Source: a virus
Length of the DNA stretch: 62,723 nucleotides
IMG/VR virus record: IMGVR_UViG_3300028920_000026
Span: 128,001 to 190,723 of that record
Strand: one strand, 5' to 3'
Part shown: piece after piece, positions 1,798-61,191 of the stretch
Numbering within the stretch: position 1 is the first letter of the stretch
How the letters are laid out: the number at the start of each line of letters is the position of its first letter
Program-made: the position numbers and the translations under genes
Notes under the pieces: generated by a model
Seen by the model: only the letters and a program-made list of their open reading frames with translations
What the model was told of the DNA's origin: nothing
The model's database searches: none

Positions 1798-3312
1798 TCA
1801 ATCTCCGCTCTTGACAAGGATCCTATCTGCCCACATTCCCTGGCCTTTGACACCTGTAACCATCTGGCCACCCATTGTCGAGATTGGACCTATACCGGTG
1901 ACCTTTCCCGTTTCTCTGTTGAGCGTACATGGGATGTCAGACACAAAGACGCCTTTGTCAGCTTTTTCGTCACCGAGCAGCATGGCACCCGATGCGCCCG
2001 GTCGAATGACAACATCACCGTTCGCTCGAAGCGCGATTGCAGCCCATTGTGATGTGTCTTCTGTTGCACGCATCCTACCGTTGTCGTCACGTTCGTACGA
2101 TGTGACGTAAAAGACCATGTCAGAGCGTGCAATCACCCTTACTTTGTCTGATTTTAGGACGATTGCACCGTCACCCGATGATTCTGACTTGAGTTCTTCC
2201 TCGTCGGCGCCCCTGTCCTTGACGGCTGACTTGTCATCACCCGCAAGGTACGATTCGTTGAATCCTTGAAGGTTGAAGTTTGTGTCGACCATCGTCGTGT
2301 TTGCAACAAAAACACGAGACCTATCATTTACGTAGTCAATGTCGCCTTCTGTTGCCGAACGTTCTGATGCCGACTTTGCGACCTCCTCTCGTTCGAGAGA
2401 GTTGATGACGACGGATCCGAGCGTCTTTTCTGTTTGTCCTCTGCCGACGACAATGTCGATAAGTCCGATGTTTTTACCTTTGATGTCAGCTGCGCTGACG
2501 TCTGGTTCGGGTCCTTTGTTTTCGTTCTCAACGTCGCCGTCAATGTGTGTAGGTCCTATCCTATCAGTGCCAAAGATGATCGCCTGGTTGTTTGAACCCT
2601 CAAGCACAAAGTCCGCTGGGCGCTTGCTCAACCTGGGAACTGCTTCGTATGACGTGAGCTTTGATGCGTTTGAACCCGTTAGTATCTGTTCGTACGCGTC
2701 GCTCCCGCCTGAGATGTACCTTGAGTCGACGGTCGCAAATCGCTCATCATCATCAGAACGATCGCCAGTCCCGTTGAGGAAATCATACTCTGGTTTTGCT
2801 GTACCGTCAGCGAGGTTCTTGCTAGACCCACCCTTTGCAAACTCAGGATCCCCGTCACGCGGTGCGTGACAATGGTTCACATCATCAGAGTGATCGAACC
2901 CAACGATGCGCCAAAGCCACCATCCAATGTCAGTGTCCTTTTGACCAGGAGAATCGTAGAACACCCAGACGTGTTCACCTGCCTTGCACGGCATCGCGAT
3001 GTGCGACGGCATGAACGGGAAGTAGAACATCGGAGGTTCCTGTGGACCACTCTCTGTCAGGACTCGTTGGCCGACGATCGTGTTTCGTGGAAGGACGTTC
3101 ACAAACTTCATGTTTGAAACCTTCAACACGTTTCGCAGGTATGCGACGTACTGTTCAGTCATCGACTTCGGATCAAGCACTTCAAGGATGACGACTTTTG
3201 TGAAGTTCGGCACGGGAGGTGCATTGGCGTTCTCGTAATACTTCGATTCGTCGTTTCGAAGTGCGGGCAGGCGACCTTCTGCTACCGCTTGTTCGATGTC
3301 TTCGTAAAGCAT
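1798..3312 (-). CDS. Hypothetical protein (504 aa), possibly a structural or baseplate-associated partner of the downstream peptidase protein
   Basis: Long uninterrupted ORF, tightly coupled to the 178-1794 ORF. No recognisable catalytic motif. Confidence 0.4.
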   Translation of the reverse strand: MLYEDIEQAVAEGRLPALRNDESKYYENANAPPVPNFTKVVILEVLDPKSMTEQYVAYLRNVLKVSNMKFVNVLPRNTIVGQRVLTESGPQEPPMFYFPFMPSHIAMPCKAGEHVWVFYDSPGQKDTDIGWWLWRIVGFDHSDDVNHCHAPRDGDPEFAKGGSSKNLADGTAKPEYDFLNGTGDRSDDDERFATVDSRYISGGSDAYEQILTGSNASKLTSYEAVPRLSKRPADFVLEGSNNQAIIFGTDRIGPTHIDGDVENENKGPEPDVSAADIKGKNIGLIDIVVGRGQTEKTLGSVVINSLEREEVAKSASERSATEGDIDYVNDRSRVFVANTTMVDTNFNLQGFNESYLAGDDKSAVKDRGADEEELKSESSGDGAIVLKSDKVRVIARSDMVFYVTSYERDDNGRMRATEDTSQWAAIALRANGDVVIRPGASGAMLLGDEKADKGVFVSDIPCTLNRETGKVTGIGPISTMGGQMVTGVKGQGMWADRILVKSGD

Positions 3313-9596: not shown

Positions 9597-10394
9597 TTAC
9601 CCATTTTCGCCCCCAAACAATTCGACGAATAGCCGATTTGCCTCGACTTCCTGGGCATCTTGTGCGGCATTCCATGCGACACTCCATGCGGAATTCGTGG
9701 CAGCGTATGCGGTGGTTGCGGCGGTTGCGGCGGTGGGAGCGGCGTGCCATGTGGGGTCTGCTGCGGCTGCTGCTGCAGCAAGGACTGCGGCTTCGGCGGC
9801 AACGGGCATAGTGGAGGTGACGCTGACGCGTCGTGCAGCAGACCATGCTGCATTCAACTTCTTATCGGTTGCTCTCCTCCATGCATACTGCTCGGCCACG
9901 TTGATTGTATTTTCTAATACTTTATGGTCCGTCTTAAACGCCAAGTGCAGAACAGACCTTGCACACCAAACAGCCCACAACCGCAGGAATCGATCGGTCT
10001 CCTCGCGCGTTGCAATCCAATCAGTATGCAGGATAGTCCCGCAAAGTTTTTTTATGCCAACGTTCACATTACCACTGATGCGGCTTGACGTGAGCAGCGG
10101 GTTGGAGGTATACTTCGCCCCAGTATCCAATGCATCGCGCAGCGTCAGCGAGCCGTGAAAGCCGCGCCCACAGAGCACCGCCGGTCCATCCACCCGTAGC
10201 GTTTTGCCAGCGACGATACGCCGACCATCGTCATGTGCCAGACGTAAGTCGCCTGAAACGAATCGCCATACGTTGTATTGAGGTATTGTCATTCTCATTC
10301 CTTTTCCAGAATAGACGAACACATTGATCATTAAAATTTCTTGCAATGTTCTGACGTTTGCAGAACCAACGTTAATCGTTTGGATTTGAGACAA
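9597..10394 (-). CDS. Hypothetical protein with an Ala/Thr-rich low-complexity C-terminus
   Basis: 265-aa ORF. The C-terminal AAEAAVLAAAAAAADPTWHAAPTAATAATTAYAATN is encoded by a local GC-rich repeat at about 9640-9860. Confidence 0.4.
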   Translation of the reverse strand: MSQIQTINVGSANVRTLQEILMINVFVYSGKGMRMTIPQYNVWRFVSGDLRLAHDDGRRIVAGKTLRVDGPAVLCGRGFHGSLTLRDALDTGAKYTSNPLLTSSRISGNVNVGIKKLCGTILHTDWIATREETDRFLRLWAVWCARSVLHLAFKTDHKVLENTINVAEQYAWRRATDKKLNAAWSAARRVSVTSTMPVAAEAAVLAAAAAAADPTWHAAPTAATAATTAYAATNSAWSVAWNAAQDAQEVEANRLFVELFGGENG

Positions 10395-45506: not shown

Positions 45507-46478
45507 ATGCCGATGTACGGTTACGTATGCAAGAAGTGTGGTACAGAATTTCAATCGCCTAAGAAAGGTAAGAAGTACTGTTCACATGAGTGTTTCGCTC
45601 ACCGCTTTGATCCTGTGACGAAGACGTGCGAGACCTGTGGATGTGAATTCACGGTCGCGTATAGGTTTAGAGGTCAGAAGACGTGTGGTAAGGAGTGTGC
45701 AAAGTCGGTGATCTCAAAGACGTTGAACGCGCGTGAGGTGAAACAGTGCCTTGCGTGTGGGAAGGACTTTGAGGTTGTGCAATCGTACAAGGACGATGCA
45801 AAGTACTGTTCGTACGAGTGTTTTCTCTCGACTCGAGCAACTCGTCAGCCAAATGTAACAAAGGTCTGTGAGTATTGTGATCAGGAATTTGTTGTTCCGT
45901 TTGTGAAGAATAACAGGCGATTCTGTAACAAGAGCTGTGCAAACAGCGGTGAAAATAATGGGTCTTTTGGACTAACTGGATCTTTACATCCAACATCAAA
46001 TGTTTCAAGTTGGAATAAAGGTAAGACAAAGTACGATGATTCTCGGTTACGAATGCTAGGCGAAAAGATATCAACGATCATAGCTGATAAGATCGTTAGT
46101 GGAACATGGTCACCGCCTTCTACGGGATTCAAAGGCGAACACTACACCGGCATAAAGAACGGTGGTGAAGAGGTTTACCTACGTTCATCGTTTGAAAGTG
46201 CTGTTGCTCGAAGTCTAGACGAGGACGATGATGTTGTATCGTGGGTTCACGAACCGTTCAGGCTTCCGTACATGTTCGATGGTAGCATTCACAATTACGT
46301 ACCTGATTTTCTTGTTTTCTTTAGAGATTGTACCGAACTGTGGGAAGTCAAACCAAAGATGTTGACTGAAACTGTGCAGAATATCGCTAAACGTGAGGTT
46401 GCTACTGCATGGTGTACTTCAAACAAGACAACATATAGAGATGTTACAGAAGATGACATTGGCTTGCTGTCATGTTAG
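45507..46478 (+). CDS. Homing-endonuclease-like protein: five tandem zinc-ribbon repeats + C-terminal PD-(D/E)xK nuclease domain
   Basis: The repeats have the form C..CG..F.......YCS.EC (CKKCGTEF...YCSHECF; CETCGCEF...CGKECA; CLACGKDF...YCSYECF; CEYCDQEF...FCNKSCA). The C-terminal VVSWVHEPFRLPY...YVPDFLVFF...ELWEVKP is paralogous to the 13223, 49048 and 52421 ORFs. Confidence 0.5.
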   Translation: MPMYGYVCKKCGTEFQSPKKGKKYCSHECFAHRFDPVTKTCETCGCEFTVAYRFRGQKTCGKECAKSVISKTLNAREVKQCLACGKDFEVVQSYKDDAKYCSYECFLSTRATRQPNVTKVCEYCDQEFVVPFVKNNRRFCNKSCANSGENNGSFGLTGSLHPTSNVSSWNKGKTKYDDSRLRMLGEKISTIIADKIVSGTWSPPSTGFKGEHYTGIKNGGEEVYLRSSFESAVARSLDEDDDVVSWVHEPFRLPYMFDGSIHNYVPDFLVFFRDCTELWEVKPKMLTETVQNIAKREVATAWCTSNKTTYRDVTEDDIGLLSC

Positions 46479-49047: not shown

Positions 49048-50055
49048 ATGAGGGTGATGTATAATTCCCTCATGCTCATCGAGATCAAGGAACTTCCTCG
49101 TTCCAAACCTGGAGCTCGTGGTCTTCCACCTCGAATCTGCATCCTTAAATGTGATATCTGTGGAAAGACGTACGAAAAGAAGTATGCTAAATCTCAGGTC
49201 AAAGCCAAGATTCATCGTTGTTCATTGAAGTGTGCATATGCTGCTCGCGGTCCCGGATCTCGCGGCGGTGAAGTTGTAGTCAGAAACTGTGCTCACTGTG
49301 GTAAAGAACTTCCACTGATGACAAAGGGAAGCATCTCTAGCGAGCATAGCTTCTGTGGTAAATCATGCTACGCAAAGTGGCGGTCAGAACATCCAGAAGT
49401 CTATGCTGCAAATACCGCCGCGATGCATACGCCTGAAGTAGCTACAAAGATATCGCAGAGGGTTCAAGAACGTATGCAGCAACCTGGTTATGTTCATCCT
49501 ATGCAGGGTAAACATCATACTCAAGAGACGAAGGATGCGATCTCGCGGCATCATAGAGATACAGGTTGTCTCAATGGCGAGAAGAACGGGATGTTTGGAC
49601 GTAGGCATACGAAGCAAGCGCGTGAGAAAATGTCAAACGCCGTATCACGCCGCATTATTGAAGGACGAATGATTGCGTATGGTTCTAAATGGAATGTGCA
49701 TGGACATTTTTATGCAAAGAAATGTTCAAATTACGATGAATGTTTCTATCGATCTAGCTGGGAACTTAAGTTCATGCAGTGGCTCGATGCGAATGATGCA
49801 GTTGAATCGTGGGAATATGAATCGGTTCGTATTCCGTACTGCTACAACGAACACAAACGTTGGTACGTTCCTGACTTTCTCGTGACGTATATCGATGGGA
49901 CACGTAGGATGTACGAGATCAAACCTGCTGAGTTTGTTTCTACGGAACGTGCCGTGTTGAAGGAAGCCGCTGGTAGGAAGTTTTGTGTTGAGAATAACAT
50001 ATATGAATATGTTGTGTTGACAGGAGATTCATTGTGCCAGATGGAAGTTACTTAG
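49048..50055 (+). CDS. Homing-endonuclease-like protein: zinc ribbons + NUMOD3-like repeats + PD-(D/E)xK nuclease domain
   Basis: Zinc-ribbon segments are CDICGK...CSLKCA and CAHCGK...CGKSC. The repeats are HTPEVATKISQR, HHTQETKDAISRHH and RHTKQAREKMSNAVS. The C-terminal RSSWELKFMQWLD...ESWEYE...YVPDFLVTY...YEIKP is paralogous. Confidence 0.5.
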   Translation: MRVMYNSLMLIEIKELPRSKPGARGLPPRICILKCDICGKTYEKKYAKSQVKAKIHRCSLKCAYAARGPGSRGGEVVVRNCAHCGKELPLMTKGSISSEHSFCGKSCYAKWRSEHPEVYAANTAAMHTPEVATKISQRVQERMQQPGYVHPMQGKHHTQETKDAISRHHRDTGCLNGEKNGMFGRRHTKQAREKMSNAVSRRIIEGRMIAYGSKWNVHGHFYAKKCSNYDECFYRSSWELKFMQWLDANDAVESWEYESVRIPYCYNEHKRWYVPDFLVTYIDGTRRMYEIKPAEFVSTERAVLKEAAGRKFCVENNIYEYVVLTGDSLCQMEVT

Positions 50056-50065
50056 TTTAAGAGAA

Positions 50066-51220
50066 ATGTCGTTTCTTCTTCGTAGTTTTGTTAAAAATGT
50101 TCTACTACAGGAACGTCGTAGGGATGACCTTGCTAAATTAAGTGAGTTAGCAGGTGATCGTAACCTGTTCATAACGTTCCGTAATCATTTAACTTTAAAT
50201 ACGAACGTCAGTACACAGTACGCAACACCTCTTGGATTGTACGCATATCCATTGACGGTTGATATTGTTCGTCAACTGAAAAATGATGAGTTACCATTTG
50301 CAACAGAGATGAAGTACGTTGTGTTGTTTGAATGTACTTCACCACAATCATTGCTAAAGCTGCAACACATCAATTCGATAGATGATGCACTTGATGTATT
50401 TTCAAGAGTTGCAACTGATATTGAAATCGATGATGTTCGTGTTGATCTTGAAGCGTCCGGTAAGAATCCAGCGGAGGGGCTTTGGGCGTTGTTGTACTCG
50501 TACGCAAACATGCGAAGAGGAAAATATCGCTTCAACAAAGTGACATCAACGTTTTTTGACAAGTTTAGTGTGTCATATGACTTGACATCAGGTCACGGTC
50601 GTTCTGTTACAACTTTGCTAAAGCGTGCAGGTTATTCTGGGATTGTTGATTACGGTGATGGAATCATTCATCACAATGAACCCACGCAGGCTGTGTTCTT
50701 TAATGTTCCGGATTTGAAGATTGTTGAAGCGTTTGACAATCCTCTCATTGTTGGGCGTGAATTTATAAAGAACGATAGTGTTAATGTACGTAGCTTTGAA
50801 ACATTGATCTCTCAATTGAAGAATCAATCAAAAGGTATCATCGTAAGAACGTTCAAGACAATGAACGTAATTGGGTTGTTGTCAGATCCATCTAAGATCT
50901 ACCAAATAAATTGGAAAAAGATCAGCCCTGCTATAACGCAGCTTCTTCTAAATCATCCTGAGGTGCTTGATATTGACGGCACGATGGATCGATTATTGCT
51001 TGGGTTCGATATTGATAGGTTACCAGATCTCGTCAAAAGAAAGTTCATGAGCTTTAACGTAATAACAGATATGCTTGCGCAGCAAGGTCAATTGTTAAGT
51101 GCCCAACAGGCGTTGCGTTTGTATGATGCAGCTGGCAATAAAAAGAAGGAACTTATTGTTCGCTACATTGATAAGCTGTGTTATGAACCTGATGAATTCG
51201 ATAAGATGATGAGCAAATGA
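50066..51220 (+). CDS. Hypothetical protein (384 aa)
   Basis: ORF only. An ATGA overlap joins it to the next gene. Confidence 0.35.
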   Translation: MSFLLRSFVKNVLLQERRRDDLAKLSELAGDRNLFITFRNHLTLNTNVSTQYATPLGLYAYPLTVDIVRQLKNDELPFATEMKYVVLFECTSPQSLLKLQHINSIDDALDVFSRVATDIEIDDVRVDLEASGKNPAEGLWALLYSYANMRRGKYRFNKVTSTFFDKFSVSYDLTSGHGRSVTTLLKRAGYSGIVDYGDGIIHHNEPTQAVFFNVPDLKIVEAFDNPLIVGREFIKNDSVNVRSFETLISQLKNQSKGIIVRTFKTMNVIGLLSDPSKIYQINWKKISPAITQLLLNHPEVLDIDGTMDRLLLGFDIDRLPDLVKRKFMSFNVITDMLAQQGQLLSAQQALRLYDAAGNKKKELIVRYIDKLCYEPDEFDKMMSK

Positions 51221-51792
51221 GCAAAAATCCCATTGTAGATGCATGCAAGTTCTGTATGTTTGCACATGATTTTGATGTTGGTGATTCAAGGTTTTTACCA
51301 AACATCGATCAGATGTTCGTGATCAACAGGTATTTCTATCGTCCGGAAGCTGCGATCTTCAAAAAGAAGCGCCGTGTTGGGATGTCAACGTTGTTTATGT
51401 TGCTAGCGATGTATGAATGTATAAACGGAGCAAGGGTCCATGTTTATGCATCGACACCACAGATGGCTGCGTACAATGCTAGGATGTTTGAAGCGTTTGT
51501 GTCGACAACGTGTTTATCGCAGTCATTTGGAAGGGCGTTGACGACAAAGTCGTTTTCAAACGGCGCATTTATCGATTTTAAGGTCGCAACAGTACCAAAC
51601 CTACGTGGTGTTTGTGGAGACGTAGCGTTCATTGACGAGGCGCAGTCCCTTAGGGAAGAGTGCTTCATTAAGGAAGCCCTGAAGAATCGTGTAGCAAACA
51701 ATATATCCGTGTCATGGACAATTGATGATCAAGGCAACACGATTCCTGTGCCCGATAAATACGCTCAGCTCGTATGCAGCCTTACAGAGTAA
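51217..51792 (+). CDS. Terminase large subunit ATPase-domain paralog (191 aa, lacks the nuclease domain)
   Basis: KRRVGMSTLFMLLAMYE...VHVYASTPQMAAYNARMF...GAFIDFKVATVPNLRGVCGDVAFIDEAQSL aligns with the authentic TerL at 59163, SRQLGLSTVAAAYAVWL...ILVIATKLQTATNF...GSQIKAIPTSEDAGRSEALSLLIVDEAAFI. These are the Walker A-like, coupling and Walker B segments. Confidence 0.45.
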   Translation: MSKNPIVDACKFCMFAHDFDVGDSRFLPNIDQMFVINRYFYRPEAAIFKKKRRVGMSTLFMLLAMYECINGARVHVYASTPQMAAYNARMFEAFVSTTCLSQSFGRALTTKSFSNGAFIDFKVATVPNLRGVCGDVAFIDEAQSLREECFIKEALKNRVANNISVSWTIDDQGNTIPVPDKYAQLVCSLTE

Positions 51793-51818: not shown

Positions 51819-52409
51819 TCAATGACGTTTAGAACCCATCGGAAGGTTTCGCTTGTCACTTGCATTCCAGGGTGTCTTACCACCTATCGCACCGGGTCCA
51901 GTTCCCAATCCCAATCCACCGCTGCTAAAGCCAGTTCCGCCTCCGCCCATGCCTGCGAATGGGCTTGTACCGTGAGCAGCTGACATTGCACCTCTGAAGT
52001 GTCTTTGTGGTTGGCGCCCCTGGAATGAAAGACCCCAGCCGATGAGTTCCTGCTTGACGCTTTTGATAAGTGCTTGGCTCGGCAACGCTCCTTCGACGCC
52101 TCGTTTGTTGAAGTCGATGTTTCTTGCGAGTGCCTGAAGCTCTGCTGTTGAGTACGAGTCCTCATCGTTGTCCATTTTGTACTCGACAAACGTCGCAACG
52201 TCATTGAACTCAGGCATCTCCATGAGCTCGAGTACGTCCTCTTCGAATGCTAGGTCTCCTGATGCCTGTGTCTGCCTGATGCTCCCGCCACGTTTGATAC
52301 GATCATCGTGTTTTGCTGCGTCTTCCTCAGCGGTACGAGATCGTTCACCGTACCAAGGCTGGCTCTCAATAATGGCCTCAATGAATTCACGAAGTAGGTC
52401 GACGCTCAT
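51819..52409 (-). CDS. Hypothetical acidic protein with a Gly-rich C-terminal tail (196 aa)
   Basis: This is the only minus-strand ORF in this part of the plus block. Its C-terminus is GMGGGGTGFSSGGLGLGTGPGAIGG. Confidence 0.35.
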   Translation of the reverse strand: MSVDLLREFIEAIIESQPWYGERSRTAEEDAAKHDDRIKRGGSIRQTQASGDLAFEEDVLELMEMPEFNDVATFVEYKMDNDEDSYSTAELQALARNIDFNKRGVEGALPSQALIKSVKQELIGWGLSFQGRQPQRHFRGAMSAAHGTSPFAGMGGGGTGFSSGGLGLGTGPGAIGGKTPWNASDKRNLPMGSKRH

Positions 52410-52838: not shown

Positions 52839-53615
52839 TTGGGTGACTTACATATGGTTATGTTTATCAGCGTAGGAAAACTTCGATCGTTGGTATTGAG
52901 TGTTCTTTCAGAGGGTCGCCTCGAGCAGGTAAAGGAACGATTTTTTGAGATCGAGGATGTTATTGACGTTCTTTCACAGAATGATCCATCACACAGCAAC
53001 AAGTATCTAGCCTGGATGGCTCGTCAGGTGATGCATGGGTTCACCGTAGAAAAAGTCATTGAATCTATCAATCGATTTCACTCTAATATTAGGAGGATGT
53101 CTCCTGAACTTAGGGACATAAACGTATTTCATGATGTTGACGCACTAGATGATGAGGTCATGAAGGTTGCAACCGTGCTGACTCGTCGTCAGATGGATGC
53201 AGCTGCGCGCCAAGAGGCGCCAGTTATCTACAGTGATGGTCCAATCATACTCAGGCGTATCCTCTCACATGCTGCGTCTAGCAAGTATGGGAAGGGTACA
53301 AAGTGGTGCATATCTTCTCGTTGGAACGATGAAGATTGGAAAGCTTACGCGCGTACATGGAACATTTATGTTCTTATCAATTCAAATAATTCAAGAAAGA
53401 TTGCAATCATTGCGAACAAGAACGGCGATTCCGAGTGGGAAGTCTATGATGAACAAGATGAGCACTTTGAGATAGATGTAGACGATGACGTATATAGGGC
53501 GATGGGCCTTGTAAACATTGCCATTAATCGAACGTTTGATGATGATGTTTCTGATATCATCAAGAATTGGGGTTGGATAGATGCGATACAGAATGACATT
53601 GAGCAAAGCACCTAA
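52839..53615 (+). CDS. Hypothetical protein (258 aa)
   Basis: ORF only. Confidence 0.35.
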   Translation: MGDLHMVMFISVGKLRSLVLSVLSEGRLEQVKERFFEIEDVIDVLSQNDPSHSNKYLAWMARQVMHGFTVEKVIESINRFHSNIRRMSPELRDINVFHDVDALDDEVMKVATVLTRRQMDAAARQEAPVIYSDGPIILRRILSHAASSKYGKGTKWCISSRWNDEDWKAYARTWNIYVLINSNNSRKIAIIANKNGDSEWEVYDEQDEHFEIDVDDDVYRAMGLVNIAINRTFDDDVSDIIKNWGWIDAIQNDIEQST

Positions 53616-55284: not shown

Positions 55285-58200
55285 ATGATCAGGATTGCTC
55301 ACCTCGCTGACGTTCACTATAGAGGGCTTGCACGTCACGATGAGTACAGACAGGTTTTTGATGCGTTTGCCGAGGACGCATTGGCTGCGTCTGTTGATAG
55401 GGTCTACGTTGCAGGCGACATCTTCCACACAAAGACGACGGGCATAAGTCCAGAATACATCCAGGAGATCTCTCGTTGGATGACACAGCTCTCGTCAGTC
55501 GCAGAGACACATCTGATTCTTGGCAACCATGATGGGAACCTGATCAACCTCTCGCGTCAGGATGCCGTTACGCCAATCTTTGACCTCGTTAAGCAACACG
55601 GTACGAAGAATCCCATTCGCCTCTGGAAATGGAGCGGCGTTTACGATTTCGCGCCGGGGATGAAGCTGTGCCTGTTTAGTATCTTTGACAAGGAGACCTG
55701 GGACAAGGTCAAGCCCGTCCCTGGCTACGTCAACATTGCAACTTATCATGGACCAGTAAGCGGTGCACGAACGGAATCTGACTGGGTCGTTGAGGGTGAT
55801 GTCTCGCTTGAGATGTTTAAAGAGTATGATTTTGTTTTTCTCGGAGACATTCACAGGCTTCAGTATCTCTGCTACAGGATGATCAAAGGAGAAGAACGAC
55901 CTTGGATTGCATATCCTGGTTCGGTATTACAGCAGAACTATGCGGAGGCAATCGATCATGGGTACCTGCTTTGGGAGATTGAGGATGCAAGAGACTTTGA
56001 CGTTTCGTTTAGAAAGCTTCCTAATCCACGTCCGTTCATCACTGTCAACTGGAGGGGGAATGTTGAATCTACTGTTGAGCAGGCTCGTGGTTTTGGTGAT
56101 GGCGTTCGTGTCCGCGTCAGAAGCGATAGACACATAGCGCAAGGTGATTCTGACGCATTATCGACGGCCTTGAGGAGCGAAGCCGGTGCATCAGAGATCA
56201 CGTTCAAGTCAGACGTTGTTGTCGGCAATCCTGTTTTCAAAGGAGAAGACAACCAAACACTCGTCAGAGATGACTTCAGGAATGCAGATGTTGTTCTGGG
56301 CCTTGTGCGGTCGTTCCATTCGAGCACGTCTTTCAATGATGATGACATCGACCGCATGCGCAGCCTCATCAACGGGTACATCCATACGATTACCAATGGT
56401 GATGATGTCACGCGTCATACAACGTGGTCGTTGCGTGAGTTCAGGTTCGACAACCTATATGGGTACGGAGAAGGAAATGTCATCAACTTCGACAAGCTAA
56501 ACGGAATCACAGGTATTTTCGGTCCAAATAGGACAGGAAAGTCGTCGATCCCAGGCGGCATCATGTATACCTTGTTCAATACGTCTGATAGAGGAATGAT
56601 CAAGAACATCGACATTTGCAACGTCAGGAAGCCTTACTGCTACGGCAAGGTGAGGTTCTCTGTAGATGGTGTCGATTACATTGTTGAACGTCAGACGTCG
56701 AAGCACGAGACGAAGAAAAAGGGCGTGTTCAATTCAATCACGGCATTGAACATCTGGAAGGTCGAGCAGGACGGATCGCTGAACGATCAAGTCTGTGACA
56801 GCAGGAACAATACAGAGAAGGCGCTGCGTAAGATACTTGGAACAGCCGAGGACTACCTCCTTACAGGATTGTCATCGCAGGGTGAGACCGATTCGTTCGT
56901 CAAGTATAGGTCGACTGCACGCTGGCGTGTGTTGGCGAGGTTCCTCGATATTGACATCTTTGCAAGGATGGAACACTTGGTAAAGGAGGACATCAAGGGA
57001 TTCAAGGCACAGCTTCGCAACTTTCCAGAAAGGAACTGGGGAGAGCTCGCGAGGGATGCCCGTCGTCGTCTAGAGGAATGTACTGAATCGATCGAAGGAA
57101 AGGTTGATGAGCTTCAAAAGGTAAACGCTCGTCTTGCTGATGTGAACGCGCTTCTTACGGCGCACGGATCAAAAGTTGTTGTTACGCCTGTTCAGGTTGA
57201 ACAGTTGAGAATGAAGCTCGAGTCCGATGAAGCGCAGCTGCTTGATAATAAGGAGGAGCTAAAAACGCTTCGTTCAGAAAACAAAGCGAATGAGAAGAAA
57301 CTTTCAAAGATCGATGATCTTCTAGCTCAGCATGATATCACAGCGCTTCGTGCGAAGGTCGATGAAATTGGAACAGCACGAACTCGTGTAAGTGACCTCA
57401 AACATGCATTAGAACGTCACGATTCGACGCTTGCATCAAAGAAGCGTTCCGCAAAGTTGCTTGAGACAGTGCCCTGCGATGACAAGTTTCCTACATGTAG
57501 GTTCATTAAAGATGCTCATGAGGATAAGGCAAAGATAGCAGAGCAGGAGAGGGTCGTGCAGGAGGCGCACCAGCTTCTTGTAGAGGCACAGGAAATGTTT
57601 AAGTCGATGTTGGAGGACGACATCGAAGGACGTCTGAAGAAGCTTGAGGCACTTCGTGATCGTCGGTCGAAGCTCGAACTCGCGATCTTGCGCAAGAAGA
57701 ACGAGATTGACAGGCTCGAACACGCATTACGGGCAACGGAAGAAAAGGTCGAGCAGGACATGTCGACGTTGCAGGAGCTCGAGTCGGCGCTGAACGACGA
57801 AGAGAATTCTGAGATTGTTCAGCTTCGAACTGAGTCTGACAACATCAGAGAGCGCATCGATGAGATCGATAACGAGAGGTTTGCCCTTGCGACAAGAAAA
57901 GGCAGGATTGAGTCAGAGATCACGAATATGCTGACAGAGAAGCGCACTCGCGATGAGATCCTCGGAAACATGAGGATTCACGAGCTGCTGGCGATAGCAT
58001 TTTCGAAGAAGGGTATTCCACGCACAATCATCACGAGCCAGCTTCCTGTCATCAATATTGAGATTGCAAAGCTTCTCAGCGGTGTTACGAACTACAAGAT
58101 CGAGTTTGAGGTCGAAGACGGTACAGATCGCCTAGAGATGTACATTGACTACGGAGACTCACGTAGGATCATCGAGCTCGGTAGTGGTATGGAGAAGCTC

Positions 58201-58455
58201 GTTGCGTCGATTGCAATTAGGGTCGCGTTGATCAACGTATCGAGCCTCCCACGCCCAGACGTCTTCTTCATAGACGAGGGCTTCGGTGCCCTTGATTCTC
58301 TGCAGATCGAGACAGGCACACGTCTCGTTCGTGTGCTAAAAGATTACTTCAAGAATGTGCTGATCATCAGCCACGTCGATGCGGTCAAAGAGATCGTTGA
58401 CGGGTTGATTGAGATCACGAAGGACGAGCAAGATTCACGCGTTGTGTATGATTGA
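55285..58455 (+). CDS. Fused Mre11/SbcD-like phosphoesterase + Rad50/SbcC-like ABC ATPase (single 1056-aa polypeptide)
   Basis: The N-terminus has calcineurin-like motifs I-V (IAHLADVHYRG; VYVAGDIFH; ILGNHDG; ATYHGPVSG; VFLGDIHRL). The C-terminal part has Walker A, GIFGPNRTGKSS, a long coiled coil (about 56900-57900), a signature-like SGMEKLVASIAIRVAL, Walker B/D-loop VFFIDEGFGALD, and the H-loop ISHVD. Confidence 0.65.
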   Translation: MIRIAHLADVHYRGLARHDEYRQVFDAFAEDALAASVDRVYVAGDIFHTKTTGISPEYIQEISRWMTQLSSVAETHLILGNHDGNLINLSRQDAVTPIFDLVKQHGTKNPIRLWKWSGVYDFAPGMKLCLFSIFDKETWDKVKPVPGYVNIATYHGPVSGARTESDWVVEGDVSLEMFKEYDFVFLGDIHRLQYLCYRMIKGEERPWIAYPGSVLQQNYAEAIDHGYLLWEIEDARDFDVSFRKLPNPRPFITVNWRGNVESTVEQARGFGDGVRVRVRSDRHIAQGDSDALSTALRSEAGASEITFKSDVVVGNPVFKGEDNQTLVRDDFRNADVVLGLVRSFHSSTSFNDDDIDRMRSLINGYIHTITNGDDVTRHTTWSLREFRFDNLYGYGEGNVINFDKLNGITGIFGPNRTGKSSIPGGIMYTLFNTSDRGMIKNIDICNVRKPYCYGKVRFSVDGVDYIVERQTSKHETKKKGVFNSITALNIWKVEQDGSLNDQVCDSRNNTEKALRKILGTAEDYLLTGLSSQGETDSFVKYRSTARWRVLARFLDIDIFARMEHLVKEDIKGFKAQLRNFPERNWGELARDARRRLEECTESIEGKVDELQKVNARLADVNALLTAHGSKVVVTPVQVEQLRMKLESDEAQLLDNKEELKTLRSENKANEKKLSKIDDLLAQHDITALRAKVDEIGTARTRVSDLKHALERHDSTLASKKRSAKLLETVPCDDKFPTCRFIKDAHEDKAKIAEQERVVQEAHQLLVEAQEMFKSMLEDDIEGRLKKLEALRDRRSKLELAILRKKNEIDRLEHALRATEEKVEQDMSTLQELESALNDEENSEIVQLRTESDNIRERIDEIDNERFALATRKGRIESEITNMLTEKRTRDEILGNMRIHELLAIAFSKKGIPRTIITSQLPVINIEIAKLLSGVTNYKIEFEVEDGTDRLEMYIDYGDSRRIIELGSGMEKLVASIAIRVALINVSSLPRPDVFFIDEGFGALDSLQIETGTRLVRVLKDYFKNVLIISHVDAVKEIVDGLIEITKDEQDSRVVYD

Positions 58456-58782: not shown

Positions 58783-59166
58783 ATGCCTGCAAAGATCGAT
58801 TACAACGCCCTTGGACAGGCGCTTGATACGACTTGGGGTCGTAGCTCGACGCCGCTCACATCGTCAACATCAGTGAAGATGCAACTTGCTGGCGAAGGCA
58901 CCATCAAGGTAAACTACGCATCGATCGTTAGCTTTAGAAACCAACGAGAACTTCAACAGACTCGTGCAAGGTATGTTGATGAGGCCCGCTGCATCATCAA
59001 TGCAACGATAAACGATGTCAAGAAAACGTACAAGGAACTGACGGGTAAGAGCATCAAGACGTCTGAAGTGACGGCGGATGACTCGCTTGAGGTTATTGGT
59101 CTTGCAGTGCATAATCCCATCAAGAGAGCGTATGCACGACGTACTGCAATATTTGAGATCGCATGA
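58783..59166 (+). CDS. Possible small terminase subunit (127 aa)
   Basis: Its position is immediately upstream of, and translationally coupled (ATGA) to, the large terminase. The size is consistent. No sequence motif recognised. Confidence 0.3.
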   Translation: MPAKIDYNALGQALDTTWGRSSTPLTSSTSVKMQLAGEGTIKVNYASIVSFRNQRELQQTRARYVDEARCIINATINDVKKTYKELTGKSIKTSEVTADDSLEVIGLAVHNPIKRAYARRTAIFEIA

Positions 59167-60797
59167 CCAAGAAGCAACAGGTTGTAGAGATCCTCAAGTG
59201 TGGCAGAGATCCATCGTACTTTATCAACAATTACGTCAAGATCCAGCATCCCATTCGAGGGTTGATTCCGTTCAAGACGTACAAGTTTCAGGATCAGTGT
59301 CTTCTTGACTTTGAGAAATACCAGTTCAACATAACATTGAAGTCTCGCCAGTTGGGACTTTCGACAGTAGCGGCGGCATATGCTGTGTGGCTTGCGATAT
59401 TTCATCGTGAGAAGAACATCCTTGTCATTGCAACGAAGCTTCAGACGGCAACAAACTTCATCAAAAAGGTGAAAGTTGCACTTGCAGGTCTACCAGACTG
59501 GTTAAAGCTTCCGAAAGAGGTCGGTATTGCAAAGACTGAGGTTACGTTTGACAACGGCTCACAGATCAAGGCGATCCCAACGTCAGAGGACGCAGGTCGT
59601 TCAGAGGCGTTGTCGCTCCTCATTGTCGATGAGGCGGCGTTTATTCGTGACTTTGGAGAGATCTGGACAGGTTTGTATCCCACGTTGTCAACGGGTGGTC
59701 GAGCCATCATCATCTCTACGCCAAACGGCGTTGCGGGTGTAGGCGCTCAGTACTATAGGATGTGGACAGAGGCAGAGGCCGGTCAGAACGACTTCAATCC
59801 AATCAGGCTCGAGTGGACGATTCATCCAGAGCACGATAAAGAGTGGTTCGATAAACAAGCCCGCCAGCTTGGTGATCCCAAGAGGATCGCTCAGGAGCTT
59901 CTCTGTGACTTTCTTGCGTCTGGTGATACGTTCCTACAACCCGACGATCTAGCATGGGTACGTTCACAGATCAAAGAACCTATCTCTCGTGAAGGTTATG
60001 CACACAACGTTTGGGTCTGGTCAAAGCCACACCCTGACGCCAAGTACGTCATGTCTGGTGACGTTGCTCGTGGCGATGGAAACGACTATTCAACGTTCCA
60101 CATCATTGATGTAGCAACATGTAATATCGTTGCTGAATTCATGGGTAAGCTTCCTCCCGATAGACACGGCGAACACATGGCCGAGTGGGGGAAGAAGTAC
60201 AATGATGCTCTCCTTGCCGCAGAACTAAACACGTATGGGTATATGACGAACGTCAAGCTTCGTGACATGGGTTATCCACACCTCTTCTACAAGAAGTGTA
60301 ACATGGATCCTTGGTTATACCTTGCGAGCGATGATGAGCTGCCAGGGTTCGACAACCAAAAGAAGACGCGTACGCAAATTCTGTCAAAGCTTGAGGAGTC
60401 GATCAGGAACAGAACATTCCATTCACATTCACGTAGGTTGTACGAACAGCTCAACACGTTTGTCTGGAACAATGGCAAGGCGATGGCGTCATCTGATAGC
60501 CACGATGACCTTGTGATCAGCGCTGCTATCGGTTGTTGGATTGTTGACGGTGGTGACAAGGTAACAGAGGCAACGCTTGCAATGACAAAGGCGATGCTTG
60601 CGTGTTCTCATAGGGAACAGGGCGTACGCCACGAGAAGCTTGCACAGATCGACAACGTTAAGCCCCTGGTGAATCCAGCGTTGTTGGGCATGAATCCACA
60701 CAGTGTTTACAGACCACGCGACCCGTCACAGGTGAGTCGTAATGCACGAGTAGCACCGGGAGCGTTGAACGACTTCAACTGGCTTTTGGGTAGATAG
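59163..60797 (+). CDS. terL: Terminase large subunit (T4 gp17-like ATPase + nuclease)
   Basis: The N-terminus, YFINNYVKIQHPIRGLIPFKTYKFQ, is followed by Walker A-like LKSRQLGLST and Walker B LLIVDEAAFI. The C-terminal nuclease region contains acidic residues (HIIDVA...SDSHDDLV). Confidence 0.75.
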   Translation: MTKKQQVVEILKCGRDPSYFINNYVKIQHPIRGLIPFKTYKFQDQCLLDFEKYQFNITLKSRQLGLSTVAAAYAVWLAIFHREKNILVIATKLQTATNFIKKVKVALAGLPDWLKLPKEVGIAKTEVTFDNGSQIKAIPTSEDAGRSEALSLLIVDEAAFIRDFGEIWTGLYPTLSTGGRAIIISTPNGVAGVGAQYYRMWTEAEAGQNDFNPIRLEWTIHPEHDKEWFDKQARQLGDPKRIAQELLCDFLASGDTFLQPDDLAWVRSQIKEPISREGYAHNVWVWSKPHPDAKYVMSGDVARGDGNDYSTFHIIDVATCNIVAEFMGKLPPDRHGEHMAEWGKKYNDALLAAELNTYGYMTNVKLRDMGYPHLFYKKCNMDPWLYLASDDELPGFDNQKKTRTQILSKLEESIRNRTFHSHSRRLYEQLNTFVWNNGKAMASSDSHDDLVISAAIGCWIVDGGDKVTEATLAMTKAMLACSHREQGVRHEKLAQIDNVKPLVNPALLGMNPHSVYRPRDPSQVSRNARVAPGALNDFNWLLGR

Positions 60798-60822: not shown

Positions 60823-61191
60823 ATGGACAAGAAGACCGCTGGAAAGAATAGCACCGTGAAGATCACGATCAGTGAGAAGCGGATGCGTGAAATCATCAGT
60901 GAAGAACTTGCTGCTGTCATCAAGGAGGCCGGCAAGTCTGTCATCACCGAGGACATGCAGACCGAAGATGAGCAGAAGAAGTCTCACGAGATCTCTGCCG
61001 CAGCGAGCACGCTCCATGATGCGATCGAGTCTTTCGAAGGTGAAGACCTTCCTGACGTACCGTCGGAGCTCGCGTCAGCGCTCCAGTCCGCAAAGTCGGT
61101 GTTGGCAAACATGGCTGATAGTCCAGGTCAGTATAAGGGCGGTGCGCCGGTAGCAGACAGTGGCGCTCCTGTTGAAGGAGAGAGGTTCTAA
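60823..61191 (+). CDS. Hypothetical acidic helical protein (122 aa) between terminase and portal
   Basis: ORF; Glu/Asp-rich. Its position suggests a head-assembly accessory or scaffold-like protein. Confidence 0.3.
   Translation: MDKKTAGKNSTVKITISEKRMREIISEELAAVIKEAGKSVITEDMQTEDEQKKSHEISAAASTLHDAIESFEGEDLPDVPSELASALQSAKSVLANMADSPGQYKGGAPVADSGAPVEGERF

Follow-up and report, generated by a model that had tools for sequence, protein, structure and literature searches.

Stand-alone proteins resembling the ATPase core of the phage terminase have only just been noticed. According to its published description, the T4 protein vs.8 is homologous to the terminase ATPase domain and activates the immune sensor EcAvs2 without itself being a terminase (PMC13601566, Nat Commun 2026). 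Here we analyse ORF191, an open reading frame (ORF) of 191 codons from an uncultured 331-kb jumbo phage of the T4 superfamily. It lies in a 62,723-nt stretch of DNA (positions 128,001 to 190,723 of IMG/VR record IMGVR_UViG_3300028920_000026; hereafter the window) that also encodes the large terminase subunit of the phage, TerL. ORF191 probably encodes a TerL-derived ATPase core, and it appears to be the former 3' part of a 572-codon ORF that was split by a recent 8-bp duplication. The evidence for TerL ancestry is moderate and not conclusive. The composite of the two, a diverged terminase-type ATPase core within a recently split, lineage-specific accessory gene, is our favoured explanation, with about an even chance of being right. 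An original prediction, made from the letters of the window, had described ORF191 as a truncated and possibly inactivated paralog of TerL; as an observation it was partly confirmed, and its interpretation was partly supported.

Terminase-like motifs in ORF191

Large terminases of the T4 superfamily have two types of Walker A loop, a canonical xRQxGK[TS]T and a deviant LK[SA]RQLG[LIF]ST, the latter found in the clade of the window TerL, in Flavobacterium phage immuto and in Stx phage Min27. We placed the jumbo phage in this superfamily because a T4-type portal and an S77 prohead protease are encoded beside TerL in its relatives. The window TerL, our comparator, is of the T4 gp17 type and matched the T4 gp17 structures in PDB with E = 3e-39. 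It had about 8000 homologues (the best 120 at 56–77% identity, many on 200–340 kb contigs), and the nearest cultured TerLs were those of Flavobacterium phage immuto (38%) and cyanomyoviruses (~32%). In the gp17 alignment, Leu66 of the resident TerL stands at the position of T4 Lys166, and K60, R62, Q63, L64, G65, L66 and T68 were invariant in 55 of 55 members of the TerL clade. Within residues 57–69, where the clade reads LKSRQLGLST, the canonical Walker A lysine is Leu in all 55 and the invariant Lys stands six residues before it, a deviant Walker A set within terminases that are otherwise gp17-like. In deviant terminase Walker A motifs the upstream Lys functionally substitutes for the Lys of GK[ST]. 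Such motifs are an established concept. Mitchell and Rao (2004, Virology 321:217, cited in PMC6379665) are said to have described them in functional, full-length terminases, and we take the loop of the TerL clade and ORF191 to belong to their deviant class.

ORF191 is coding by codon statistics: the log-likelihood per codon is +0.19 in its own frame and −0.49 in the remaining two. From its end to the start of TerL downstream the distance is 7,371 nt, in line with the ~7.4 kb first reported. Three blocks had been aligned with TerL in the original prediction, and BLASTP reproduced them in the same register as one collinear alignment (residues 50–147 vs TerL 60–163, 23% identity, E = 0.043 for a single comparison). 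This one register held throughout, in hhalign with four profiles and in HMMER as well, and the resemblance to the TerL N-terminal ATPase core recurred in every profile variant. The Walker A-like loop (residues 50–58, in the context F-K-K-K-R-R-V-G-M-S-T) keeps the K, R, G, S and T of the terminase-type Walker A (x-R-Q-x-G-K-[ST]-T or K-[SA]-R-Q-L-G-[LIF]-S-T). It does not match the classical P-loop GxxxxGK[ST], since it reads R-R-V-G-M-S-T with no Lys before [ST], the GK lysine giving way to a hydrophobic residue. The Walker B motif (residues 135–140) has the hhhhDE pattern of TerL and is preceded by the NG hairpin and R-[GS] at the fixed spacing. In all, ORF191 retains K50, R52, G55, S57, T58, D139 and E140. 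There is no room for a lid subdomain before the end at residue 191. The RNase H-like nuclease domain is absent, as had been claimed: the stop comes 51 residues past Walker B, nothing follows in frame downstream, and the next gene is convergent. The predicted order of helices and strands up to the hairpin is compatible with a RecA-like/additional-strand catalytic glutamate (ASCE) fold, for which the AlphaFold2 (AF2) models were untrustworthy.

The original prediction had read the replaced Walker A lysine as a possible sign of inactivation. The letters GMST are there, but the TerL clade lacks that Lys too. The argument from a lost lysine fails because the resident functional terminase has the same deviant loop, shared also by immuto and Min27, and by sequence the missing lysine in ORF191 is no evidence of inactivation. 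ORF191 is not visibly inactivated, because its deviant-type loop keeps K, R, G, S and T and it also keeps D139 and E140.

We scored two blocks with ungapped position-specific scoring matrices, Walker A (TerL 57–69) and the segment from the NG hairpin through R-[GS] to Walker B (TerL 129–159). The joint score demanded block order and a spacing of 55–90, and was compared with 228 real or reversed decoys and 20,000 shuffles. The best block positions in ORF191 were the expected sites, residues 47 and 113. With a profile of all TerLs its joint score was 49.5 (best decoy 31.0); a profile restricted to outgroup TerLs gave 47.1 (best decoy 25.0), and one restricted to the clade gave 52.3 (best decoy 36.9). 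None of the 20,000 shuffles reached the ORF191 score (Gumbel-extrapolated P 1e-5 to 8e-5). Taken singly, the P-loop matrix gave 25.0–31.3 vs ≤22.7 for 139 real decoys, and the NG–RG–DE block gave 24.5–28.4 with the all-sequence and outgroup profiles, where no real decoy exceeded 24.4. The second block aligned ungapped at exactly the spacing of T4 gp17 (NGSSI...VRG...IYIDEC), matching at N0, G1, I4, S/T10, R15, G16, I24, D25 and E26. By these scores the motif-block match, with its order and spacing, is clearly beyond chance. The resemblance also looks specific to TerL and not generic to P-loop proteins, with PhoH, a true P-loop ATPase, at 24.0 vs 47–52 for ORF191. The blocks differ in which terminases they fit. 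The Walker A block scored 31.3 against its own clade vs 18.7 against outgroups, while the Walker B block scored 28.4 against outgroup TerLs vs 21.0 against its own clade, with R-G as in gp17 where the clade has R-S. This mosaic fit, together with the ~23% identity, argues against a recent cut-down copy of the resident TerL, and the "truncated paralog" or stub of the original prediction did not hold up in that sense.

Whole-domain statistics for ORF191 and TerL were marginal, at ~21–27% identity over 100–150 columns. The observed Smith-Waterman score was reached by 37 of 2000 shuffles, and in phmmer against the 67 window proteins TerL came first with E = 0.82. Against the 55-sequence TerL-clade alignment, hhalign gave P = 0.0019 and a probability of 14%. 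No shuffle of 600 reached the score, and ORF191 ranked first of 112 real non-TerL proteins (30.1). With ten diverse T4-superfamily TerLs and gp17 added to the profile the P-value was 0.0016, and with profiles lacking the phage's own clade it was 0.012–0.015; hhalign probabilities across TerL profiles were 3–16%. In hmmsearch ORF191 had 6.5, 4.5 and 2.3 bits and ranks of 1, 1 and 7 among 288 sequences. The positive control, T4 vs.8 against the same three profiles, returned hhalign P-values of 0.062, 4.7e-5 and 6.6e-5 and hmmsearch E-values of 0.038, 0.003 and 0.0006. It scores in the same weak range as ORF191, and weak global scores are therefore what is expected of a real stand-alone TerL relative. 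A statistical check of the alignment, which the original prediction had asked for, thus came out positive for the post hoc motif blocks and marginal for the whole domain.

ORF191 is otherwise an orphan. It matched only itself in a word-index search of 5.8 billion clusters and an exhaustive phmmer search of 1.84 billion representatives. The sole extra match, P0002, was dismissed as spurious because it is a translated tandem repeat. Nor did tblastn, run at E ≤ 10, turn up a relevant match in 50,697 phage records.

Table 1 Features of the ORF191 locus and the comparator terminase (window positions).
Feature	Position	Strand	Remarks
Homing-endonuclease-like gene, 335 aa (zinc ribbons, NUMOD3, TnsA-like PD-(D/E)xK nuclease)	49048..50055	+	Pfam Tn7_TnsA-like_N 3.4e-10, NUMOD3 4e-9; PHROG endonuclease 9e-21
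Upstream 384-codon gene	50066..51220	+	5' part of the reconstructed 572-codon ORF; homologues P0124-P0128
Perfect 8-bp tandem duplication, ATGAGCAA ATGAGCAA (+A)	51209..51225		Seen in the sequence; on the stop/start overlap
ORF191	51217..51792	+	191 codons; orphan coding sequence, product with TerL-type ATPase-core motifs
Deviant Walker A-like P-loop, K50-K-R-R-V-G-M-S-T58	51364..51390	+	Aligns with TerL K60-S-R-Q-L-G-L-S-T68 (BLASTP, hhalign)
Block F113-S-N-G-A-F-I...L-R129-G...V-A-F-I-D139-E140-A141	51553..51639	+	Beta-hairpin "NG", R-G, Walker B with catalytic Glu
Convergent 196-aa accessory gene, N-terminus MSVDLLREFIEAIIE	51819..52409	-	Window-specific; closes the variable slot
TnsA-like (PD-(D/E)xK) gene, 135 aa	52421..52828		Conserved syntenic core gene in all three relatives; PHROGs family label "head closure"
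TerL (T4 gp17 type), comparator	59163..60797	+	Pfam Terminase_6N E = 4e-13; PHROG 2 E = 2e-48

The duplication at the junction with the upstream gene

The 384-codon gene and ORF191 overlap at an ATGA, and the tandem duplication lies exactly on this stop/start overlap (GATAAG ATGAGCAA ATGAGCAA AAATCCC). The first copy holds the last codons (M-S-K) of the 384-codon gene, which ends ...D-K-M-M-S-K-stop. The second copy holds the ATG-AGC-AAA (M-S-K) with which ORF191 starts (M-S-K-N-P; MSKNPIVD). When one copy was deleted in silico, the two ORFs became a single uninterrupted ORF of 572 codons with the junction peptide EFDKMMSKNPIVDACK (DKMMSKNPIVD) in its fused form. The sequence before the duplication necessarily read through, and therefore ORF191 appears to have been the 3' part of this longer gene until recently; its annotated boundaries, read this way, are a recent accident. 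The tract is the only one of period 8 in the 62.7-kb window, where periods 7, 10, 11 and 12 had none and period 9 had one. A second assembly (L001, Logan, SRR8554435) was identical across 20.5 kb of the locus, which makes an assembler artefact at the junction unlikely. With this duplication at the junction, ORF191 is unlikely to have been an independent gene for long. The period-9 tract, the other perfect short tandem duplication, has the unit GGTTGCGGC and spans 21 nt (9714–9734) inside an ORF, in frame.

Two other accounts of the junction were rejected. A +8 shift at a non-slippery duplicated octamer corresponds to no known recoding signal for a programmed frameshift. For a transposon target-site footprint, the repeats are adjacent and there are no element ends.

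We propose that the duplication of ATGAGCAA caused a frameshift, which brought in the TGA that now ends the upstream part, and that the second copy supplied an ATG overlapping this stop. With that overlap the distal 191 codons could still be translated, by termination-reinitiation at the ATGA. The distal part would encode a RecA-like ATPase core that is homologous to the N-terminal one of TerL but has diverged very far from it. Its product would be unable to cut or package DNA alone; most likely it would bind or hydrolyse nucleotides, or interact with proteins that partner the ATPase domain of the terminase. It would then be a stand-alone TerL-ATPase-like accessory protein of the vs.8 kind, with an independent origin.

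Residues 20–227 of the 384-aa protein encoded upstream matched a phage family profile without annotation (hhalign, P = 1e-22), and the protein had no match in Pfam, PHROG, NCBIfam or PADLOC. AF2 was confident only for residues 20–224 of the 572-aa reconstruction. Foldseek of this model against PDB and BFVD found only uncharacterised phage proteins, at the N-terminal family domain. A MAFFT alignment (A2) had hinted that the conserved C-terminus of the family reads through across the junction, a possibility that hhalign rejected.

Alternative explanations

Several results weigh against a TerL origin of ORF191. No Pfam family matched at E ≤ 1 (Terminase_6N included) and no PHROG at E ≤ 0.1 (the vs.8 family included), searches that the window TerL passes, and NCBIfam, PADLOC and the PDB sequences gave no match. 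The TerL-invariant Q63 is Arg in ORF191, and many further clade invariants are not kept. A possible coupling (C) motif, I-S-V-S165-W-T167, is +26 to +28 from D139 (the TerL STP is at +29 to +31) and lies outside confident alignment cover. The AF2 single-sequence model of ORF191 had a predicted local distance difference test (pLDDT) score of 35, and in the model of the 572-aa reconstruction, built on a 5-sequence alignment, the ORF191 part was below 50. Both models were unusable there and so give no fold support. The whole-domain P-values of 0.002–0.015 are not significant allowing for ~70 window proteins. The PhoH-like ATPase of the window was just behind ORF191 in hhalign (28.7 vs 30.1), and rank 7 with the clade-only hidden Markov model (HMM) is within noise. 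The block-test P-values are optimistic because the blocks were fixed post hoc, with the alignment already seen. The main rival is chance resemblance. On this reading ORF191, unique and evolving fast, is the C-terminal part of an orphan accessory gene unrelated to TerL, and its Walker-like strings are coincidental. In its favour are the empty family and structure searches, the phmmer E-value within the window, the clade-only rank, the low hhalign probabilities and the failure of AF2 on this region; the original prediction had also scanned the whole window for resemblances, which is multiple testing. We nevertheless hold chance to be unlikely, if well short of negligible, since each of the two blocks scores best at its expected site with the correct order and spacing. 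The joint score is also far above all 228 decoys and 20,000 shuffles even with the outgroup-only profile, ORF191 and the resident TerL share the rare deviant type of Walker A, and the true homologue vs.8 is equally weak in global tests. A P-loop NTPase domain of some non-TerL family, sharing generic Walker A/B features only, is a far more remote prospect. PhoH and a helicase of the window were also near the top against the TerL profile in hhalign, so this profile picks up generic ASCE similarity. Yet ORF191 has the terminase-type deviant loop in place of the GxxxxGK[ST] of nearly all other P-loop families, PhoH trails it widely in the block test, and no Pfam P-loop family matched even at the loose threshold. 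Equally improbable, and disfavoured, is the idea that ORF191 is a copy of the resident TerL that was recently truncated and inactivated in an endonuclease-mediated rearrangement. A homing endonuclease gene does lie two genes upstream and the Walker A block prefers its own clade. Against this stand the low identity and lack of DNA similarity, the retained catalytic residues, a "lost lysine" that is the native state of a functional TerL, the preference of the Walker B block for outgroup TerLs, a frame intact for 191 codons with normal coding statistics, and the 384-codon gene that separates ORF191 from the endonuclease gene.

The recent split, the other half of the favoured explanation, also has results against it. 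Homologues of the 384-aa protein are complete at 405–504 aa and end about where the 384-codon ORF ends, and ORF191 had P = 0.54 against the profile of that family, which does not cross the junction. The G+C content at third codon positions (GC3) is unequal between the halves (0.37 vs 0.48) and rises from 0.30 to 0.49 along the reconstruction. An anchored variable-gap pattern found no one-copy junction allele in JGI metagenome contigs and IMG/VR, collections that do not contain this phage. The rival here is a long-standing, stand-alone, vs.8-like TerL-ATPase gene that overlaps its neighbour, with the junction repeat coincidental or the split form selected. In its favour, the TerL-profile alignment starts at ORF191 residue 3 and TerL residue 15, so the ORF begins where TerL begins; upstream-family members are complete at ~400 aa without an ORF191-like extension; and the two ORFs differ in GC3. 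The vs.8 family also provides existing stand-alone proteins of 173–193 aa. ATGA overlaps are common in phage operons. We think this explanation improbable, about half as credible as chance resemblance. The sole perfect period-8 tract in 62.7 kb sits exactly on the junction (by chance a given junction would carry such a tract with a probability of around 1e-4), the ATG-AGC-AA codons are duplicated in frame in both ORFs so that the pre-duplication sequence reads through, and the absence of any ORF191 orthologue from the searched databases is unexpected for an old gene under selection. At the speculative end, and very doubtful, the unsplit 572-aa protein could be a capsid-targeted internal protein, with a leader like those of the T4 internal proteins and membership of a tandem-array family, whose C-terminal terminase-ATPase mimic is injected against terminase-sensing immunity. 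The premise is that Avs2 and Upx recognise the TerL ATPase domain and that T4 vs.8 triggers Avs2. The mimic, injected with the DNA, would act in the cell as a decoy or inhibitor of this immunity, and the slippage-prone 8-bp repeat would be a switch that toggles between a fused, packaged form and a split, cytoplasmic one. The favoured explanation remains a diverged terminase-type core in a recently split accessory gene.

The variable slot and comparison with known systems

We compared the locus with three syntenic relatives (L002-L004), whose TerLs are 59–60% identical to that of the window. Gene order in the relatives is a ~845-aa protein, a small variable gene, a TnsA-like protein of ~130 aa, RuvC-like, primase, SbcD/SbcC, a 126–127-aa protein and TerL. 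All of these but the small variable gene were confirmed by tblastn as conserved in the three relatives. The 384-aa gene, ORF191, the convergent 196-aa gene and a 258-aa gene had no tblastn counterpart in them, so the related phages compared do not carry the same stub, a check the original prediction had proposed. The 196-aa gene also had no Pfam, PHROG, NCBIfam or PADLOC family, and searches of IMG/VR for related loci, one with the 384-aa protein and one with TerL, found no close relatives. The slot with the 384-aa gene and ORF191 is thus hypervariable and lies between two conserved core genes. The homing-endonuclease-like gene starts the window-specific insert, and its homologue in L003 is at a different place. 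The insert has a G+C content of 0.39–0.45 vs ~0.50 in the core genes. The hypervariable position, the adjoining homing endonuclease gene and the G+C content below that of the core all suggest an accessory gene that evolves fast and can be dispensed with, outside the packaging machinery. ORF191 had been described as surrounded by homing endonuclease genes. This is right for the mobile 335-aa gene on the upstream side; on the downstream side, the 135-aa TnsA-like gene belongs to the core conserved in the three relatives.

Two larger genes of the window that look mobile (49048–50055 and 45507–46478) also carry the TnsA-like nuclease domain, as a fusion with zinc ribbons and NUMOD3, which suggests a homing-endonuclease family with a TnsA/endonuclease I-type nuclease as its base. 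SbcD (Metallophos) and SbcC (SMC_N/AAA_23) are fused into one protein of 1049–1056 aa in the window (55285–58455) and L004 (6065–9214), and are separate (215–218 aa and 860–873 aa) in L002 (5723–9272) and L003 (6044–9309). The T4-type portal genes of the relatives are much enlarged, at 1578 and >2191 aa (L003 13189–17925; L004 12044–18616). The L003 portal contains two intein-splicing and HNH domains, an intein-invaded portal adjoining TerL.

The family of the 384-aa protein forms arrays of three to four tandem paralogues in other phage contigs (L015 1–5716; L016 35–3783). Its conserved motifs are LGINPxSKYxTPLGIYAYP and GDGIIHHNEPTQAVFF, with no Pfam family, and the L015 array adjoins NAD-salvage genes (NAMPT, a nicotinamide mononucleotide (NMN) transporter and NadR-like/NUDIX). 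The N-termini of window-specific accessory proteins and of paralogues in this family resemble the capsid-targeting leader of the T4 internal proteins. T4 ipII and ipIII start MKTYQEFIAEA. Among the paralogues the N-termini are MKIYDLLEARRNP, MKIQDLLEARRNP and MKIHELLEARKNP; that of the convergent 196-aa protein is MSVDLLREFIEAIIE, and ..NVLLQERR occurs in the 384-aa protein. Leader-like sites are at 50066–50115, 52365–52409 (-), 52839–52915 and 60823–60950 in the window and at 1161–1200, 3246–3285 and 4487–4526 in L015. Going by these short motifs, the proteins that bear them may be packaged and processed by the S77 prohead protease.

T4 vs.8 (L017 9254–9913) is annotated at 219 aa, and its homologues (L018-L025) are mostly of 173–193 aa and start near T4 residue 38–45; the annotation may use too early a start. 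Pipelines label the homologues "terminase large subunit" in Klebsiella phage Roth01 and "internal head protein" in Yersinia phage P8. Membership of ORF191 in the vs.8 family (PHROG 1488) was rejected. A 9-member vs.8 profile gave hhalign P = 6.6e-10 against canonical TerL and P = 0.58 against ORF191, and neither BLASTP nor PHROG 1488 matched it.

The significance of the locus depends on which explanation is right. If the TerL resemblance is only chance, it is an ordinary orphan accessory gene. The locus also has methodological value: the argument from lysine loss fails on the resident terminase's own loop, and a short duplication points to annotated ORF boundaries of recent, accidental origin. 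If the TerL origin is true, a second independent case would suggest repeated recruitment of the terminase ATPase core by phages for non-packaging use. This case would have the deviant Walker A of its clade and be attached to a different protein family than vs.8, and ORF191 would be a second sequence for testing interaction with terminase partners or terminase-sensing defence.

Among known systems, genes split by a short tandem duplication, with the downstream part made by termination-reinitiation at an ATGA, share with this locus a perfect repeat at the breakpoint and two open halves. In that class, too, the second repeat copy becomes the new start codon, as it apparently does here. Deviant Walker A terminases have a conserved Lys at the N-terminal end of the P-loop and not in GK[ST], as do the clade TerLs, immuto, Min27 and ORF191, but they are functional full-length enzymes while ORF191 has the ATPase-core motifs only. 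The TerL N-terminal ATPase domain (PF03237; PDB 3CPE, 2O0H) has the same order and spacing of Walker A, helix/strand, NG hairpin, R-G and Walker B hhhhDE. ORF191 departs from it in failing the Pfam model entirely, in the lack of the lid and nuclease and in having Arg for the invariant Q63. The closest system in architecture is vs.8. Its family ranges over 173–219 aa and ORF191, at 191 aa, falls within the ~175–220 aa of the type; both occur in T4-superfamily phages. Both have only the TerL-like Walker A and B core, end ~40–50 residues past Walker B without lid or nuclease, and lie in an accessory region away from the packaging genes (T4 vs.8 adjoins denV, ipII and ipIII). They differ in the loop, canonical GGRQ[ST]GK[ST] in vs.8 and deviant K..R.G-M-ST in ORF191, and in distribution, with the vs.8 family in ~1000 T4-like phage records and ORF191 a singleton. 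Unlike vs.8, ORF191 was apparently the C-terminal part of a 572-aa protein until recently. If it is TerL-derived, ORF191 would be an independent instance of the vs.8 architecture.

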